A stretch of 64,000 bases of DNA from Nitrosopumilaceae archaeon (GTDB lineage Archaea > Thermoproteota > Nitrososphaeria > Nitrososphaerales > Nitrosopumilaceae): the NCBI GenBank assembly GCA_965200155.1, contig CBDATR010000024.1, positions 416,001 to 480,000 on the forward strand, written 5' to 3'. Numbering within the stretch: position 1 is the first letter of the stretch; each line of letters begins with the position of its first letter. Shown here piece after piece: positions 37,394 to 57,154 of this stretch. The position numbers were made by a program, and so were the translations under genes. The notes under the pieces were generated by a model. That model did no database searches, was not told the origin of the DNA, and worked only from the letters and a program-made list of their open reading frames with translations.

Positions 37394-38062
37394 AGTTGGG
37401 AGACATGGATGTCATTTATTAAATTGTGAGGTATGCGGCGAACGTAACAGTTTATGTCTCACAAGTTCGAATACAAGCTTGCCGGGATAGTGGAAGACTG
37501 ACCATTTTCAAAATACGTTTGTTTATTGCGAACCTGTTCTCTGAGCACACATTTGCCACAGACTTGTGTAACACGTCATAAACACTGGCAGCCTGGATCA
37601 GAGTATGGCGAAGGTGACCCAAATGGTCACTACAGGAACCGCTCATGACGGTAGTAAATGCTTACTCTGTAATCCGGGCCCTTGGCAGTGACCAAGGTCA
37701 TTGTACAATTGCTCTGTTATTGAGATTGATGTGACGCGATGGAGCAGTATACGCTATGACTGACAGAAGCATATCCTCTGTGTAGTATGTTTAATGTACG
37801 CGTAAACCCACTACAAATCTTGGATACCAACTTATGGTATGAACTCGCCACCTCAAATGGGGATCTCTGGGTGACCTAAAAGGTTACAATAAAACTCAGT
37901 AGGAGATTTAAATTGAAAAGAAAGGCAGTAGTATGAGTTCACGTGTTTTGATCATTCACTAAGATATAGATTGGCATGACAATATTTTACTTAAATACCA
38001 AATTTGCAATAAGAATCTAATGAGAAGACGCCGGTCCTATAAGGAATTGGAACTGAAAAATA

Positions 38063-38152
38063 GTATGAGTTCACCTGTGTCTAAATTTACGCACAACTGA
38101 TCGCGACAGTTAATGTGATTTGTGCACGATTCCGGAAGACGTGAACTCATAC
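38063..38152. mobile_element. MITE (90 bp) inserted near codon 14 of the IS66 transposase
   Basis: TIR GTATGAGTTCAC; TSD GAAAAATA/AAAAAATA; absent in IS copy 2. Confidence 0.92.
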
Positions 38153-38177
38153 AAAAAATAAGCTTCTTCAGGATACC

Positions 38178-38279
38178 CTTGCGTCTACCAAGAAAGAACT
38201 TGCACATTACAAGGCAGGGGCCATGGGCCGCCTTGTCCTACGTCTTGCGGCTACCGAGAAAGATCTTGCACATTACAAG
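38178..38279 (+). repeat. 36-bp repeat / 30-bp unique insert / 36-bp repeat
   Basis: CTTGCGTCTACCAAGAAAGAACTTGCACATTACAAG (38178-38213), insert GCAGGGGCCATGGGCCGCCTTGTCCTACGT (38214-38243), repeat 38244-38279 with 3 mismatches. Confidence 0.85.
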
Positions 38280-39686
38280 GAACGTGTGAGAGTATTGGAA
38301 GCATATGTGTCCCGCACCACAAAAGAAATACGAAATCTCACACAAGATTTCCAAATTATTATAAATTATGTAAATGAATTGGAAAAGAAATTAAAAGAAA
38401 AACAGGGGAAAATTGCGGTAATCACAACGCGACTTAAATATTATGAGAATGCTCACTTGCCACCATCCCTTCAATCCCTCCAGTACAAGAAGCGGGAACA
38501 GGGAGATAATAAGCAACAGACAGAAGCCAGTACTAAATCAGCCAAAAAGGCTGGCGCGCAAAAGGGACACAAGGGGGTTTCCCGTTCCCACAACCCCGAC
38601 AGAGTAATGCGCCACACCTTTGAGCATACTCCAATATGTGAGTGCGGCAATATAATGACAAAAAGTGGTTGGAAACAACGACGCATAACAGAATTAATAC
38701 CAGCCAGAATAGAGGAGACCCTTCATGTGATAGAGATGGCCTCCTGCATGTGCGGCAAAAAACAACTGGCCCCAGCAGTGGGCGTCCCAGAGAGTGGTGG
38801 TTTTGAGATGTGGTGCCATCACTGCATTGCGTGCGGAAAAGATTCCAATAAAACGCGTACCTGTAATTTCGAGGGATCTCTTCGGCCTGAATATATCGGT
38901 GGGTGCGGTAAACAACATAATTGCCAGGGCCGCCGATGCATGCGAATCATTTATGGAAACAATTTATGAGAATATAATAAAATCACCCAGCATTCATGTG
39001 GACGAAACTGGTATATCACTGGCGGGTAAGCGTGGCTGGATATGGGGGATGCGGGCCGAAGAGTGGATGATATGCAAAAGTAGGAGTCATATGTAGTGGA
39101 CAAATACCTGAACGGTTACCAGGGCGCGATAGTCACAGACAGGTACGTTGTGTGTTACCGGTTTGATGACGGTGGGAAGCACCATCTGGGCGCATTTATT
39201 GCGCAATACCAGTATATTACATGCAGGATTCTATATCGATCCCGGTGATCAGGACGCCCGGATCAAACTTGACAACTATTTGATCCGGAGCGCACGTGAA
39301 TCGCTGCGGGCCGTCCGCGCAATTACGACACTCATTTGAGACAGGAGCAGATGCATCAGTACTGTGATGTTGAGGATACTGAACTGCAAAAGAAGGTAAA
39401 AGGATTGAATAAGGCCATACCAGGCATGTTCGTATTCCTAGAATATGACAGTGTGGAGCCGACCAACAATCCAGCGGAGCAGTGGAACCGGTTCTGATAC
39501 GCAGTGGTATTCCGCAAGATTAGTGGTCAGATAAAGGGTGTAATGCGCCGCATGTCCATATGTGTTCAGACATGGAGGACTCAGGGCCTTTCTGTAATGA
39601 ATGAGGTTGCTGCCAGAATGCAATTATAATTAAAAAACTGGGATGCATTCTATCTTATTATGTGATCAAAACACGTGAACTCATAC

Positions 39687-39865
39687 CTTTTACTAGTCCA
39701 CGACGGGGCTTTGATGTAATAGTGGGTAATCTGCCGTGGAAGAAAAACAAGATGAATGAGGATAAATTCTTCTCAATATATGATCCGGAGATACAGACAC
39801 TCAATCCTAACACTAAAAAAAAGAAACGTATAAACAAGGGCTGTCATAGTCAAATCGTACTATAA
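39687..39865 (+). pseudogene. Fragment of an N6-adenine methyltransferase (Type IIG/Eco57I-like R-M)
   Basis: 'RRGFDVIVGNLPW' is a degenerate motif IV (GFDxxxGNPPW); truncated at the IS66 end. Confidence 0.65.
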
Positions 39866-39883
39866 CCGGATACGCCCTAGCCA

Positions 39884-40294
39884 TTATATCCCACCTGCAT
39901 ATTTAGGGTGAAATGCCGGAATTCCCACCATGGTGGCCACCTTAAGCATTCCCCGATCAAGCGTAATCAGGCCAATTCCATGTATGCGGCACGTGGCCAG
40001 AATGCGGTGATCACCATTATGTGCATAGTGATACTGGTTACGTAGCATTTGGGCGGTATCCTCAAGATCTGTGGGATCCGATATTATGCCGACGCGTCTC
40101 TCACCAAATATCTTGCGCAGGCTACCAAGAATTGCATCAACTGTCAGGTTACGTACCCGTCTGAGCTCCCATAATACTTGGCTACACAGCACTATCTTGT
40201 ATTGCTTGCCCTTAAGATTGTCTCGCAGTTTACTGACGACCGAGGCGCCCTCCATTATGTCTATTACAACGCATGTGTCAAAGGCTATTTTCAT
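39884..40294 (-). CDS. PIN-domain ribonuclease (VapC-like)
   Basis: 'IAFDTCVVID', 'VLWEL', 'DHRILATC', 'LITLD' acidic PIN motif pattern. Confidence 0.82.
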   Translation of the reverse strand: MKIAFDTCVVIDIMEGASVVSKLRDNLKGKQYKIVLCSQVLWELRRVRNLTVDAILGSLRKIFGERRVGIISDPTDLEDTAQMLRNQYHYAHNGDHRILATCRIHGIGLITLDRGMLKVATMVGIPAFHPKYAGGI

Positions 40295-40507
40295 GATAGT
40301 GGTATGCTAATATAGTTATTATTGATTACTTACATAGTATTGTTAGTATCCATAGTATTAATAATATACTAAATAATTAAAAATCACTCAATAAAACACG
40401 AAATGCGGCACAAGGCGGGGACATGGTAATGGGGAGTATAAGTGAAAAAGAAGTGAACCCTAGTGATGCTCACAGTCCAATGCTTGCCGCGTCTATTACT
40501 GAACTCA

Positions 40508-40780
40508 TTATGCATACTCCCCAATATCGGCATATTGGCGGCGTCTTATCGCCCTGGCCTCATCTTCTAAGAGCGACTCACCGTATCGTGCTAATAGCAC
40601 ACCACGCATGAATCGACTTAACGCGATTTCCTTCCTTTTGGCTTCTTTCTGTGCCCATTGATGTACATCATTATCAATTGATATTTTGACTTGTACAATA
40701 TTTTGCAAATGTGTTCCGATCGCATCAATATTGAAATCATTATTGAATGATAAAATCACGACTTTCTTTTTTTTGAACAT
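40508..40780 (-). CDS. Small ribbon-helix-helix (CopG-like) DNA-binding protein
   Basis: 'VQVKISIDNDVHQWAQKEAKRKEIALSRFMRGVL' fits the RHH pattern; true start may be internal. Confidence 0.6.
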   Translation of the reverse strand: MFKKKKVVILSFNNDFNIDAIGTHLQNIVQVKISIDNDVHQWAQKEAKRKEIALSRFMRGVLLARYGESLLEDEARAIRRRQYADIGEYA

Positions 40781-41016
40781 TATGGCCCCTCTATTGTCGC
40801 TTCATATGGCAATATTTTATCATAATTAGCCAAATATGCAATTTTATTAGCGACGCGCGCATATACGTATTGTATACAATTATCATCGTCATCTTTTGTT
40901 GATAAATTTTCAGCATATGATTTTATTTTATACCATTTATCAATATTCCTGATTTTTACAATATCTCCTATTTGAGGAAATTGGCCCTCTGGAATAATTA
41001 ATTTGAGTAATGTCAT
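40780..41016 (-). CDS. Small AT-rich hypothetical protein
   Basis: 78 aa; start/stop overlap with both neighbours. Confidence 0.5.
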   Translation of the reverse strand: MTLLKLIIPEGQFPQIGDIVKIRNIDKWYKIKSYAENLSTKDDDDNCIQYVYARVANKIAYLANYDKILPYEATIEGP

Positions 41017-41207
41017 TTCATGTCCCCCTCACTCGGCATCCATAATCGTAAATCCTTGGCAATATCCTGCAATTTCTTTTGTGCATCCGGGGATGATATA
41101 CCATAACTATTTGTCAGCGCCACGAGTATGGAATGGGTATCATATGTCGTGCAGCACAGACTAACTTGTTTCATTATACTACCTACTATTGACCTGTTAA
41201 AGACCAT
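41013..41207 (-). CDS. Small hypothetical protein
   Basis: 64 aa; ATGA overlap with the next gene, preceded by GAGGGGG RBS-like sequence. Confidence 0.45.
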   Translation of the reverse strand: MVFNRSIVGSIMKQVSLCCTTYDTHSILVALTNSYGISSPDAQKKLQDIAKDLRLWMPSEGDMK

Positions 41208-41408
41208 ATCGGTTTGTATATTCTAATTTGAAAAATTCTATATACAAACTTGGACGGCTTAACGTGAATATTACAGCTATGTGATTCAAATTGACCCTGT
41301 GGGCAAGGACTTATGCACAAAATAAACGAATTATTAACATGAACTTATGCACACAGATTTCTGAGTTAAAATTTTTCAGGGCACAAAATCCTATACGGAC
41401 CTCTATTA

Positions 41409-41757
41409 CACGCCCCCCTTCTTACTACTCTGCTAACTAATTTGTGCATTCTATTGTATATGATCATTCGTATAACACCCATTTTTTAGCTGCCGGCACA
41501 CCCCTGGGCTTCTTATGCTATTGATCATATGTCATATATCCACACACGCCCCTGATCTTATACTATTGACCATACCGCCCTACTCTTATGATGATATCCA
41601 TATGTCATACGCCCCTGGGCTTACTATTGATCATATATCCGCCACGACTCCTTATGACCTGCACGCCCCTGATCTTATACCACTGCTCCTTATGACGCCC
41701 CCGCCCCACTGTCACTGCTCCTTATGACTATCCAGAACGCCGCGACTCCTTATGCCG
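41409..41757. repeat. Mosaic of short degenerate direct repeats
   Basis: ACGCCCC(TG), CTCCTTATG, CTATTGA and CATAT recur in shuffled order; strongly C/T-skewed; no credible ORF. Confidence 0.65.
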
Positions 41758-41901
41758 GTTACCTAGTGAGTTAAATTTTCGAGGACAAGTGCCTTACTAT
41801 GATACGGAACGCTTCAAAAGACTGATCATTCCAACTCATGTTAACACTATTCTCTATGTACTGACTTCTTAACAGCGCCCCATATGCGCTAGACGAATAT
41901 T

Positions 41902-42601
41902 CTAGGGAATAGGCGCCTTGTAGTACTTGTCCAGGCCGGTTGGTTCTGGTTGCAATGATGATTCCATTTCGAACTGTTCTGGTAGTTGGTCTATGATCCT
42001 GTCTGACGCTATTCCCACATAGACCAACCGCTCTATTATGGCGCGTACCATGTCGCCATTCACGCCCTCTAGTGGATAATTCGTGATGCCACTCTCGGCA
42101 TTGGAACGATACTTGTATCTATCAACGAACCATCCTACAGGCGTTCTACCATTGACTGAGTAATGGATTGTTGGCATATTATCGTATACTAACACGTTAT
42201 CCAGTAGTAGTTTGGATTGATCAACTATTCCCTTTGGTCCGGGACCGTCATTAGGTTTCTTACCAAAGGCTATCTTCTTTGGAGCGTCAGGTATTGGAAC
42301 CAGCGACTCGCCCAGGTTGTAACGGGGGCCGGTCTCATAATTGAGATGCAAGTCAGCTAGCTGTCTACCTGCTTTCATGAATGAGTGGAAATCGGGTGCC
42401 ATGGGTATGCTTGGTAAACCACGAACGAGAAATACCTGGTACTTGGTACGATAGCCGGGGTGGTGTAGAATCCCATACGTATAGTAGAAGATGTCCTCTT
42501 TAGTAATTGAATTATCATTATAGACATCACAATAGTGTTTTAACGCCCAGTCTGTAATGTTATCATTCATTTCGTCACCATCATTGTTATTTTGTTTCTT
42601 T
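41902..42601 (-). pseudogene. C-terminal specificity domain of a Type ISP restriction-modification enzyme (LlaBIII/LlaGI-like), 5'-truncated
   Basis: 'DNITDWAL...ITKEDIFYYTYGILHHPGYRTKY...LPSIP...AGRQLADLHLNYE...YSVNGRTPVGWFVDRY...SGITN'; frame runs up to the IS66 end at 42602. Confidence 0.85.
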
Positions 42602-42847
42602 GTATGAGTTCACGTGTTTTGATCACATAATAAGATAGAATGCATCCCAGTTTTTTTAATTATAACTGCATTCTGGCAGCAACCTCGTTCATAACAGAAA
42701 GGCCTTGAGCCCTCCATGTCTGAACACATGATACAAATGTAGACATGCGGCGCATTGCCCTTTCGCCACCCTTTATCTGACCACTAATCTTGCGGAATAC
42801 CACTGCGTATCGCAAAGCCTGCTCCGCTGGATTGTTGGTGGGCTCCA
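42602..42847 (-). mobile_element. IS66-family right-end fragment (copy 3), truncated by a MITE
   Basis: 24-bp TIR at 42602; encodes the intact C-terminus 'PTNNPAEQALRYAVVFRKISGQIKGG...VMNEVAARMQL*'. Confidence 0.9.
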
Positions 42848-42939
42848 GTATGAGTTCACGTCTTCCGGAATCTTATGCACAAATCACATTAACTGTCGCG
42901 ATCAGTTATGCGTAAATTTAGACACAGGTGAACTCATAC
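42848..42939. mobile_element. MITE (92 bp) at a rearrangement junction
   Basis: Full TIRs; flanks GGGCTCCA / GATGGGTA do not form a TSD. Confidence 0.92.
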
Positions 42940-43173
42940 GATGGGTAAGTTGTTTAATAAAATAAATGTCGCCAACGAGGTTGTAGGTACTGACTCGGAG
43001 ATACTAGGTGAGGAGCTCATGCCAAAACAATTCAACGATAATTACACCAAGATAAGAAAGATGGCGTATGAGTTCACGTGTTTTGATCACATAATAAGAT
43101 AGAATACATCCCAGTTTTTTAATTATAACTGCATTCTGGCAGCAACCTCGTTCATTACAGAAAGGCCTTGAGC

Positions 43174-43272
43174 GTATGAGTTCACCTGTGTCTAAATTTA
43201 CGCACAACTGATCGCGACAGTTAAAGAACCGGTTCTTTTGTGCACAAGATTCCGGAAGACGTGAACTCATAC
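43174..43272. mobile_element. MITE (99-bp variant) in the 3' end of IS66 copy 2 transposase
   Basis: TIRs; TSD CCTTGAGC; absent in copies 1 and 3. Confidence 0.93.
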
Positions 43273-43379
43273 CCTTGAGCCCTCCATGTCTGAACGCATG
43301 ATACGAATGTAGACATGCGGCGCATTGCCCTTTCGCCACCCTTTATCTGGCCACCAATCTTGCGGAATACCACTGCGTA

Positions 43380-44834
43380 TCAGAACCGGTTCCACTGCTC
43401 CGCTGGATTGTTGGTGGGCTCTACACTGTCATATTCTAAGAATACGAACATGCCTGGTATGGCCTTATTCAATCCTTTTACCTTCTTTTGTAGTTCAGTA
43501 TCATCAACATCACAGTACTGATGCAGAATGGATTCTGCTCCTGTCTCAAATGAGTGTCGTAATTGCGCGGACGGCCCGCAGTGATTCAGGGATTCCCGTG
43601 CGCTCCGGAACAATCCTTTCAGGTCGTTGTCAAGTTTGATCCGGGCGTCCTGAGCACCGGGATCGATATAGAATCCTGCATGTAATGCCTGGGTATCGCG
43701 CAATAAATGCGCCCAACACAACTGGTGCTTCCCACCGTCATCAAACCGGCGGTACACAACGTACCTGTCCGTTACTATCGCTCCCTGGTAACCGTTCAGG
43801 TATTTGTTCACTACATTTGAACTCCTACTTTTGTCATATATGGACATCATCCACTCTTCGGCTCGCATCCCCCATACCCAGCCACGCCTACCCGCCAGTG
43901 ATATACCAGTTTCGTCCACATGAATGCTGGGTGATTTTATTATATTTTCATGAATTGTTTCCATAAATGATTCACATGCATCGGCGGCCCTGGCAATTAT
44001 GTTGTTTACTGCACCCACCGATATATTTAGGCCGAAGAGATCCTTCGAAATTACAGGTATGCGTTTTATTGGAATCTTTTCTGCGCGTAATGCAGTGATG
44101 GCACCGCATAATTGAACCCCAAAACTACCACTCTTTGGGACGCCAGCTGCTGGGGCCAGTTGTTTTTTGCCGCACATACATGCAGCCATTTCTATCATAT
44201 GGTGGGCCTCCTCTATTTTGGCTGGTATTAATTCCGTTATGTGTCGTTGTTTCCAACCAATTTTTGTCATCATATTGCCGCACTCACATATTGGTGTGTA
44301 CTCAAAGGTGTGATGCACTACTCTGCCGGGGTTGTGGGAACGGGAAACCCCCTTGTGTCCCTTTTGAGCGCCAGCCTTTTTGGCTGATTTCGTACTGGCT
44401 TCTTTCTGTTGCTTATTATCTCCCTGTTTTCGCTTCTGCTCCTCCTGTTTTCGCTTCTTGTACTGGAGGGATTGAAGGGATGGTGGCGAGTGAGCATTCT
44501 CATAATATTTAAGTCGCGTTGTGAGTACCACAATTTTCCCCTGTTTTTCTTTTAATTTCTCATTCAATTCATTTACATAATTCCTAATAATTTGGAAATC
44601 TTGTGTGAGATTTCGTATTTCTTTTATGATGCGGGACACATATGCTTCCAATACTCTCACACGTTCCTTGTAATGTGCAAGATCTTTCTTGGTAGACGCA
44701 AGCAAGCGACTCATTCGCAGTGTCGCCCCGCCCAAATACTTGTAATGTGCAAGATCTTTCTTGGTAGACGCAAGGGTATCCTGAAGAAGTTTATTTTCCA
44801 GTTCCAATTCCTTATAGGACCGGCGTCTTCTCAT
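43380..44834 (-). CDS. IS66 transposase, prematurely terminated just after the 'TNNPAE' motif
   Basis: Coiled coil, Zn-finger, 'HVDETG', 'VTDRYVVY', 'QLCWAHLLR', 'PTNNPAEQ' then WNRF-stop instead of ALRYAVVFRK. Confidence 0.88.
   Translation of the reverse strand: MRRRRSYKELELENKLLQDTLASTKKDLAHYKYLGGATLRMSRLLASTKKDLAHYKERVRVLEAYVSRIIKEIRNLTQDFQIIRNYVNELNEKLKEKQGKIVVLTTRLKYYENAHSPPSLQSLQYKKRKQEEQKRKQGDNKQQKEASTKSAKKAGAQKGHKGVSRSHNPGRVVHHTFEYTPICECGNMMTKIGWKQRHITELIPAKIEEAHHMIEMAACMCGKKQLAPAAGVPKSGSFGVQLCGAITALRAEKIPIKRIPVISKDLFGLNISVGAVNNIIARAADACESFMETIHENIIKSPSIHVDETGISLAGRRGWVWGMRAEEWMMSIYDKSRSSNVVNKYLNGYQGAIVTDRYVVYRRFDDGGKHQLCWAHLLRDTQALHAGFYIDPGAQDARIKLDNDLKGLFRSARESLNHCGPSAQLRHSFETGAESILHQYCDVDDTELQKKVKGLNKAIPGMFVFLEYDSVEPTNNPAEQWNRF
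44667..44774 (-). repeat. Identical 36-bp repeats flanking a unique 36-bp insert
   Basis: Repeats 44667-44702 and 44739-44774 (aa LASTKKDLAHYK twice); insert 44703-44738 (aa YLGGATLRMSRL). Confidence 0.9.
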
Positions 44835-56752: not shown

Positions 56753-56844
56753 GTATGAGTTCACCTGTGTCTAAATTTACGCATAACTGATCGCAACAGT
56801 TAATGTGATTTGTGCACAAGATTCCGGAAGACGTGAACTCATAC
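56753..56844. mobile_element. MITE (92 bp)
   Basis: TIRs; TSD AGACATCA. Confidence 0.93.
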
Positions 56845-56903
56845 AGACATCATACTAATCAATTCCAGACCATACCACCCGCAGACAAATGGCAAACTGG
56901 AGC

Positions 56904-57154
56904 GCTTCCATAGAACGATTGAGGACGAGATATGGCATTCAATCTCCCACTGGGACCATGACCCCCGTCCTGCAGGCTTCACAGAACGATTGAGGACGAG
57001 ATATGGCATTCAATCTCCCACTGGGACCATGACCCCCGTCCTGCAGGCTTCCACAGAACGATTGAGGACGAGATATGGCATTCAATCTCCCACTGGGACC
57101 ATGACCCCCGTCCTGCAGGCTTCCACAGAACGATTGAGGACGAGATATGGCATT
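56904..57154. repeat. CRISPR-like array: four 36-bp IS-derived repeats alternating with three identical 36-bp foreign units
   Basis: GCTTCCAYAGAACGATTGAGGACGAGATATGGCATT at 56904, 56976 (35 bp), 57047 and 57119; CAATCTCCCACTGGGACCATGACCCCCGTCCTGCAG at 56940, 57011 and 57083. Confidence 0.9.

Follow-up and report, generated by a model that had tools for sequence, protein, structure and literature searches.

Nivala, Shipman and Church are said to have described, in 2018 (Nat Microbiol), non-canonical spacer integration and 'neo-CRISPR' loci in the type I-E system of Escherichia coli, where CRISPR denotes short palindromic repeats that are clustered and regularly interspaced. In the parts of the published record that concern us here, off-target Cas1-Cas2 integration was detected in E. 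coli with an over-produced integrase (PMC7054753), and the portion of a preprint that treats natural occurrence (bioRxiv 10.1101/148544) calls its commonness unclear, with only circumstantial evidence in two species. Passages on Pyrococcus furiosus Cas1-Cas2 in vitro (PMC6698737) report off-target integration at sites sharing repeat features, with recognition points along the repeat. Off-target acquisition is also named, in a statement of PMC13142298 that cites Shmakov et al. 2020 (CRISPR J), as one proposed origin of arrays away from cas genes, and 'ectopic' acquisition in the relevant sections of PMC7999890 and of a review (PMC8047081) refers to events within an array, as in Streptococcus thermophilus CRISPR3. 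Here we analyze a window of 64,000 bp (C24:416001-480000, the whole stretch of DNA under study) from the 2.38-Mb genome of a Nitrosopumilaceae archaeon, which is 87.6% complete and divided among 51 contigs (labelled C1, C5, C9, C24 and so on). Two copies of an IS66-family insertion sequence (IS) in this window each carry a repeat-insert-repeat unit inside the transposase gene. These units very probably arose by off-target activity of the type I-G adaptation module resident in the genome, which consists of a Cas4/Cas1 fusion and Cas2, with IS66 as a multi-copy hot spot for off-target Cas1-Cas2 integration.

As far as the pertinent parts of these sources permit a comparison, the archaeal case resembles the off-target events of E. 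coli in that a spacer-sized fragment lies at a non-CRISPR site with a repeat-length target duplicated, and it resembles the 'neo-CRISPR' loci in that the sites share some repeat features and later inserts can extend a unit into a small array. Unlike type I-E over-production in E. coli, the present case is natural, archaeal and of type I-G, comprises 44 sites with half of the inserts derived from the host, and has its hot spots inside multi-copy IS elements. The P. furiosus assay, in the sections that deal with targets, likewise involves non-CRISPR DNA with repeat features, comparable to the weak motif found here; in contrast to its plasmid and purified proteins, the products described here are fixed in a genome and known from sequence alone. 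For S. thermophilus CRISPR3, the cited sections also place a spacer elsewhere than at the leader-proximal repeat, but the target there is a genuine array repeat, whereas here it is non-CRISPR DNA. Isolated or orphan arrays are recognized by array-finding tools; here we find mostly single-insert units whose repeat is the local sequence that was struck, many of them in transposase genes. The mechanism is already known from experiments. What our literature searches did not return is a genome in which dozens of such events occur naturally, with host DNA as the source of half and with hot spots in multi-copy transposons that then carry the units from place to place.

Inspection of the window reveals the same 36-bp target segment (hereafter R) duplicated around an insert in both IS66 copies (Table 1). 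This duplication around unrelated inserts of 30 bp and 36 bp had been proposed in a first-pass annotation of the DNA, and it is borne out. R is matched four times in the window at three or fewer mismatches versus zero times in 100 dinucleotide-preserving shuffles. The inserts, S1 in copy 1 and S2 in copy 2, are unrelated to one another and, as annotated, richer in guanine and cytosine (0.70 and 0.58) than the repeat (0.42). Their description as different spacers at one site requires one amendment, in that the 30-bp S1 is a form shortened by 6 bp of a 36-bp insert present in other IS66 copies. The two IS66 copies had also been described as full; this applies to copy 2 with its open frame, but copy 1 is interrupted by a 90-bp miniature inverted-repeat transposable element (MITE) and its frame is in pieces. 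The DNA added by the two units amounts to 66 bp and 72 bp, both multiples of three, that is to say 22 or 24 in-frame residues in two transposase reading frames, and in copy 2 the 24 residues lie ~20 codons past the transposase start. The annotated preservation of the frame thus holds within the window but not for the site as a whole, where two of six inserts are 37 bp long and add 73 bp.

Alleles of the IS66 site were compared across the genome as the stretch between two flanking anchor sequences, in all copies having both anchors (n = 53). The single 36-bp segment, or empty allele, is found in 27 of the 53 copies, and foreign inserts are found in 12. In eleven copies the allele is 57 bp long through internal duplication of 21 bp, with no foreign DNA; one holds a 78-bp allele of the same kind, and two are MITE-disrupted (87 bp and 143 bp). 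Each insert-bearing copy contains one to three inserts, of which six are distinct (S1-S6) and all share one identical register. S2, S4 and S5 are 36 bp long, S3 and S6 are 37 bp, and S1 occurs in either the 30-bp form or a 36-bp form (C10:210131, C13:47777, C24:500875 and C34:234640). The arrangements are R-S1-R, R-S2-R, R-S3-R, R-S4-R-S1-R and R-S5-R-S6-R-S1-R, where S1 and a characteristic degenerate repeat occupy the 3' end of every S1-bearing array and newer inserts lie on the 5' side. Both the empty alleles and the existence of multiple distinct inserts had been anticipated by the annotation, and to these the comparison adds a single register and array growth in one direction. Extra partial IS66 arrays lacking one or both anchors are also present in the genome.

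A search for the IS66 repeat-insert-repeat form gave 29 matches in the genome itself versus matches in 0 of 40 related genomes, a result that speaks only to this IS form. In a tree built from 500 bp downstream of the site, for 50 of the 53 copies (three with shorter tails were omitted), S1-bearing copies formed no clean group. The tree contains many long branches and open forks arising from MITE insertions and truncations; it is too noisy for any inference on whether S1 spread by transposition or by gene conversion. Separately, the 57-bp allele of 11 copies (for example C10:296887-296943 and C24:95418-95474) contains a duplication of seven codons, and both it and the 78-bp allele arose by ordinary slippage where the gene encodes heptads and are separate from the spacer inserts.

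The same geometry extends well beyond IS66. When the whole genome apart from the CRISPR array is scanned for direct repeats (22 bp or longer, 30-200 bp apart), the histogram of their spacing shows a peak at 72-75 bp (33, 21, 10 and 7 pairs) versus ~2 pairs per distance elsewhere. Removal of duplicates and low-complexity DNA leaves 125 pairs. Of the 70 pairs spaced by 70-77 bp, 42 have repeats of 36-37 bp, versus 2 of the 55 at the other distances between 30 and 200 bp (Fisher p 4e-12), and 47 of 51 unique pairs with repeats of 35-38 bp are spaced 71-75 bp apart. Defining an ectopic unit by a repeat length of 34-40 bp and a distance of 69-78 bp gives 54 units at 44 distinct sites, with inserts of 32-39 bp (mode 35-37). 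Single-copy DNA holds 27 of these sites and repeated elements hold 17; 36 of the 44 lie outside a long open frame, one of at least 600 nt being present at only eight. Different inserts were captured repeatedly at the IS66 site (6), at a site in a second IS (3) and at three others (2 each). Periods that keep the reading frame are more frequent among the ectopic units (28/54) than in the real array (102/288; p = 0.03), a modest excess that fits selection against frame-breaking integrations. A separate class consists of an identical insert repeated in tandem, where three of five such units with a period of 71-73 bp have an insert matching host DNA elsewhere. We also observed, at C24:352098-352300 and C43:103915-104080, two adjacent ectopic units in staggered registers, the second duplication overlapping the end of the first unit, which suggests a second integration beside an existing unit.

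These dimensions are those of the genome's one CRISPR array. It lies on contig C9 (C9:71011-92087) and consists of 289 repeats, all of 36 bp, with spacers mostly of 37 bp (101), 36 bp (85) and 38 bp (63), followed by 35 bp (16) and 39 bp (15). Repeats of 36 bp and spacers of 36-38 bp give the array a period of 72-74 bp, as in the ectopic footprint. Directly upstream are a 549-aa Cas4/Cas1 fusion, identified as Cas4g/Cas1g by NF049935 (NCBIfam; 710.7 bits versus a cut-off of 560), and Cas2. Past the array are Cas3g, Csb2 and Csb1/Cas7g, and the type I-G profiles TIGR02621, TIGR02165 and TIGR02570 score 709.1, 284.5 and 72.8 (cut-offs 400, 45 and 38). This set of Cas4g/Cas1g, Cas3g, Csb2 and Csb1/Cas7g identifies the system as type I-G. 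The organism is an archaeon, since the small-subunit rRNA on contig C24 scores 1437.6 bits with the archaeal model versus 1093 with the bacterial one. The first-pass annotation had recommended a search for cas1 and had reported no cas gene within the window; the latter is correct, and the search is answered by the type I-G locus on another contig, with its array of the same repeat length and similar spacers. The Cas4g/Cas1g fusion is the single Cas1 match in the 87.6%-complete genome. Cas8g/Csx17 (TIGR04113) had no match in this genome, but it had none in the control genomes either. Fragments of an IS5-family transposase stand upstream of csb1 (C9:98700-99500), where cas8g is expected, and the interference module may therefore be incomplete.

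Comparison of the inserts with the rest of the genome returns a near full-length match for 27 of the 54. One of the 27 is another IS66 array; the remaining 26 matches sit in unrelated flanks and are therefore true source sites, 19 of which show 100% identity across the aligned portion of the insert. Among them, S4 of IS66 matches a unique chromosomal site, C24:21283-21319, at 100%, so that the protospacers sought by the annotation do exist, and many of them in host DNA. For S1, a diverged sequence at C1:23454-23481 (26 of 28 nt) is the probable source, and this divergence is in keeping with S1 being older. For S2, the rest of the genome offers no match. Neither the 26-nt core of S2, in viral or metagenome contigs, nor the core stretch of S3, in viral contigs, had an exact match, in searches that would miss a single mismatch. 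The real array behaves differently, with only one of 288 spacers matching the genome outside the array, and that match is itself an ectopic insert on contig C25. Host-derived sequences thus make up 26 of 54 ectopic inserts versus 0 of 288 array spacers (p = 2.6e-24). Over 26 nt the ectopic insert in question (C25:4797-4831, in the unit C25:4760-4868) is 100% identical to array spacer 58 (E 4.6e-11), and the two are offset by ~10 nt and lie on opposite strands. The overlap indicates that the same foreign DNA fed both the real array and an ectopic site. Weaker overlaps, between S5 and spacer 72 (15 nt, E 1.5e-4) and between the insert at C34:192138 and spacer 136 (22 nt at 91%), were not used as evidence.

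One ectopic unit lies within the cas operon itself, ~430 bp from the leader-repeat junction (Table 1). Both of its inserts are host-derived, from C10:291117-291150 and C24:421310-421346, and the integrase appears to have struck its own operon twice. Seven sequencing runs contain this DNA, four of them labelled sponge metagenome and three bearing a coded organism name. The unit is present in the contigs of all four runs examined for it (two studies), where loose ends read into the two source loci. Contigs spanning cas1, cas2 and the leader from four of the seven runs carry the unit unchanged with no joint that skips it, although contigs cannot reveal rare variants and the result has no bearing on ongoing activity.

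Table 1. Locations of the repeat-insert units and of the elements around them; positions lacking a contig label are those of the window.
Feature	Position	Strand	Remarks
Degenerate IS66 copy 1, interrupted by a MITE	38020..39540	+	ATG at 38020; frame in pieces; ~88% identity to copy 2
MITE of 90 bp, its inverted ends being GTATGAGTTCAC...GTGAACTCATAC	38063..38152		26 bp upstream of R in copy 1; from comparison of copies 1 and 2; no part of the spacer unit
R, first (5') repeat of copy 1	38178..38213	+	1 mismatch to the consensus 36-mer
Insert S1 of copy 1, 30 bp; oldest and 3'-most unit	38214..38243	+	6 bp shorter than the 36-bp version elsewhere
R, second, slightly degenerate repeat of copy 1	38244..38279	+	2 mismatches; the same variant closes every S1-bearing array
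Open 484-aa transposase frame of the IS66 family, copy 2	43380..44834	-	Open reading frame; PF03050 DDE_Tnp_IS66, E 1.3e-34
R, second repeat of copy 2	44667..44702	-	0 mismatches
Insert S2 of copy 2, 36 bp	44703..44738	-	In window copy 2 only; no source found
R, first (5') repeat of copy 2	44739..44774	-	0 mismatches
Unit of 72 bp, present 3.5 times in tandem within a different IS; ~35-36 bp come from the IS and 36-37 bp are a foreign insert	56904..57154	+	Same insert each time
R-S-R-S-R unit in the cas operon, 37-bp repeats and 37-bp inserts	C9:70403-70587		From the last codons of cas4/cas1 to the start of cas2

Analysis of the target sequences shows a weak shared motif and is exploratory. 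Ectopic repeats match the canonical repeat with a mean best identity of 13.2/36 versus 11.4 ± 0.32 in 300 random sets (maximum 12.45). The resemblance is concentrated at positions 3, 5, 11, 12 and 26, at each of which R of IS66 carries the canonical base. De novo motif discovery with free orientation and shift reached 7.85 bits versus 5.32 ± 0.23 in 25 random sets, with a consensus that has inverted ends. Fourteen sites have a repeat of exactly 36 bp; when their 28 ends are read inward, unoriented, a purine occupies position -3 in 24, G occupies +1 in 14 and +11 in 17, and G is found at +5 in none. This weak two-fold symmetric preference is what a symmetric integrase would leave. The orientation of the best match between R and the canonical repeat puts the newer IS66 inserts on the leader-equivalent 5' side, so that the orientation of the match and the polarity of the inserts agree independently. 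Ectopic repeats do not differ from random 36-mers in hairpin propensity (mean minimum free energy -5.16 versus -5.00 ± 0.48). The canonical repeat forms an 8-bp hairpin of -14.3 kcal/mol; R of IS66, at -4.4, is average for random 36-mers.

A plausible course of events follows from these dimensions. The integrase would load a fragment of ~36-38 bp and attack each strand of a non-CRISPR target, at points separated by 36 bp, a stagger equal to the spacing it uses on its own 36-bp repeat. Repair of the gaps would then duplicate the 36 bp and leave a repeat-insert-repeat unit. In IS66 the favored target would be the 36-bp stretch beginning 60 bp past the start codon; because this stretch exists in ~50 copies, it could be struck six times or more, each time in one and the same register. 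Later integrations would enter the 5' repeat, as in a genuine array, and unit-bearing IS66 copies would spread the unit by transposition or gene conversion. The IS66 repeats lack the canonical hairpin and are therefore probably not made into guide RNAs, and a lack of guide processing would explain why host-derived inserts survive at ectopic sites but not in the real array. The hairpin energies and the surviving host-derived inserts together point to inert by-products rather than working arrays. Of the two alternatives offered by the first-pass annotation, ectopic integration of the Cas1 type is the one supported, by the empty alleles, the register of the inserts, the match to the resident cas1 and array, and the protospacers.

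Several observations weigh against attribution to the resident integrase. We infer catalysis by this particular enzyme from sequence comparisons, and the 87.6% completeness of the genome leaves room for a second integrase. No protospacer-adjacent motif was found beside the 26 source sites, whether the flanks were tabulated unoriented or oriented by similarity to the canonical repeat, and uptake assisted by Cas4 would be expected to leave such a motif. Leader-like 7-mers, taken from the 80 bp upstream of the array, occur in 2 of 88 ectopic flanks versus 6.1 ± 2.6 in random ones, a count that lends no support to leader recognition, and the best match of R to the canonical repeat is only 15/36. 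Where repeats appear to be 37-40 bp long, the added length rests on junction bases that match by chance, and the exact figure of 36 bp is a reading of the mode. The inserts of the window also lack a perfect source, S2 having none and S1 one of only 26/28.

The missing motifs and the incompleteness of the genome would fit a different integrase or repair process, borne by the IS or the host, that makes 36-bp duplications and 36-bp inserts whose CRISPR dimensions are coincidental. We consider this highly unlikely, given that repeat and insert lengths both match the resident array, that one insert overlaps an array spacer by 26 nt, and that one unit sits within the cas operon so near the leader. 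Moreover, 43 of the 44 sites lie outside the IS66 target, and with 27 of the 44 in single-copy DNA no IS-borne function is needed; on the same two counts the second alternative in the annotation, a capture system carried by the IS itself, lacks support. We also know of no transposase family that combines a 36-bp duplication with a templated 36-bp insert. Casposons, which use a stand-alone Cas1-like casposase and duplicate a target of ~14-15 bp, were considered and rejected, as the Cas4g/Cas1g fusion next to the array gave the only Cas1 match and the duplication here is 36 bp. An ordinary explanation, in which a coiled-coil-coding repeat in the transposase N-terminus was duplicated in tandem and then diverged, can draw on the slippage that does occur in this region (eleven 57-bp alleles with the 21-bp duplication and one 78-bp allele) and on the frame kept by both window units. 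The annotation had expected it to show two repeats in every copy, linkers that align with one another, no empty allele and no external match, and what we found departs from this on every count. The six inserts resemble neither the repeat nor one another, two of them break the frame by adding 73 bp, S4 is identical to a unique locus elsewhere, and the same geometry recurs at 43 other sites, with 36 of the 44 outside any long open frame. The empty alleles and the external source of S4 refute tandem duplication, to which we give practically no credence.

A further possibility accepts the same origin but gives the IS66-borne units a function. The units would work as mini-CRISPR arrays, transcribed with the transposase message and supplying guides to the I-G effector, so that the IS, as it moved about the genome, would bring with it immunity or a weapon against rival elements. 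Arrays of up to four repeats with three different inserts and one-directional growth speak for such a function, the units stand just downstream of the transposase start and are probably transcribed, they have spread to several loci, and S5 shares its weak 15-nt overlap (E 1.5e-4) with array spacer 72. We nevertheless regard a working array as improbable. The IS66 repeat is identical to the canonical one at 15 of 36 positions and has no counterpart to its hairpin (-4.4 versus -14.3 kcal/mol), S4 as a perfect copy of a host chromosomal site would be self-targeting if used, and the presence of host DNA in half of the ectopic inserts versus none in the real array argues against use in interference. 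In a more far-reaching version, the IS66 5' region is a mobile, nascent CRISPR locus, in which a target that is repeatedly recognized, extended directionally, borne by a transposon and transcribed gives guides or tunes transposase production. This too is unlikely; if true, a CRISPR array would here be seen in the course of its birth on a mobile element.

Off-target integration by the type I-G module, as the preferred explanation, carries several consequences. The genome appears to hold 54 such events at 44 sites, and these would form a natural record of spacer uptake unfiltered by interference, with about half of the inserts coming from host DNA versus none in the array. That contrast puts a number on the self-uptake that is normally purged. 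The sites also offer a natural target set from which to read the sequence rules of a type I-G integrase and its 36-bp spacing. Small one-directional arrays arising from non-CRISPR DNA bear on the origin of new arrays, and insertions into genes, the cas operon included, represent a cost of adaptation. Ectopic units of this kind can, in addition, resemble orphan mini-arrays to array-finding tools.

The first-pass annotation had listed a third case at position 56904. The geometry there is indeed similar, with a 72-bp unit, but a single insert is repeated 3.5 times and the host element is a different IS (Table 1). The unit occurs in one of 84 copies of this second IS, 32 of which are empty, and its insert has no match elsewhere in the genome. 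It is read as one capture followed by tandem copying of the unit. A different kind of insertion is seen in ~44 of the 84 copies (for example C5:61694 and C9:54789), where a palindromic, in-frame insert of 27 bp, GGGGACTCTTATTTAAGAGTCCAAYGA, occupies one fixed site. It is doubled in two copies and absent from the window copy near 56900, and it is unlike the spacer units.

Within the real array, spacers 160 and 161 are identical, spacers 139 and 179 share 30 nt, and spacers 205 and 245 share 25 nt, both at 100%; this points to unit duplication and to repeated sampling of the same sources. Adjoining the cas locus, C9:100753-105803 on the minus strand holds anti-phage-associated genes of the DUF1156 and DUF499 types, of which the DUF499 gene is apparently split in two. 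The ~90-bp MITE with the ends GTATGAGTTCAC...GTGAACTCATAC is found in the window at both 38063-38152, in IS66 copy 1, and 56753-56844, in the second IS, and it recurs in many other IS copies.

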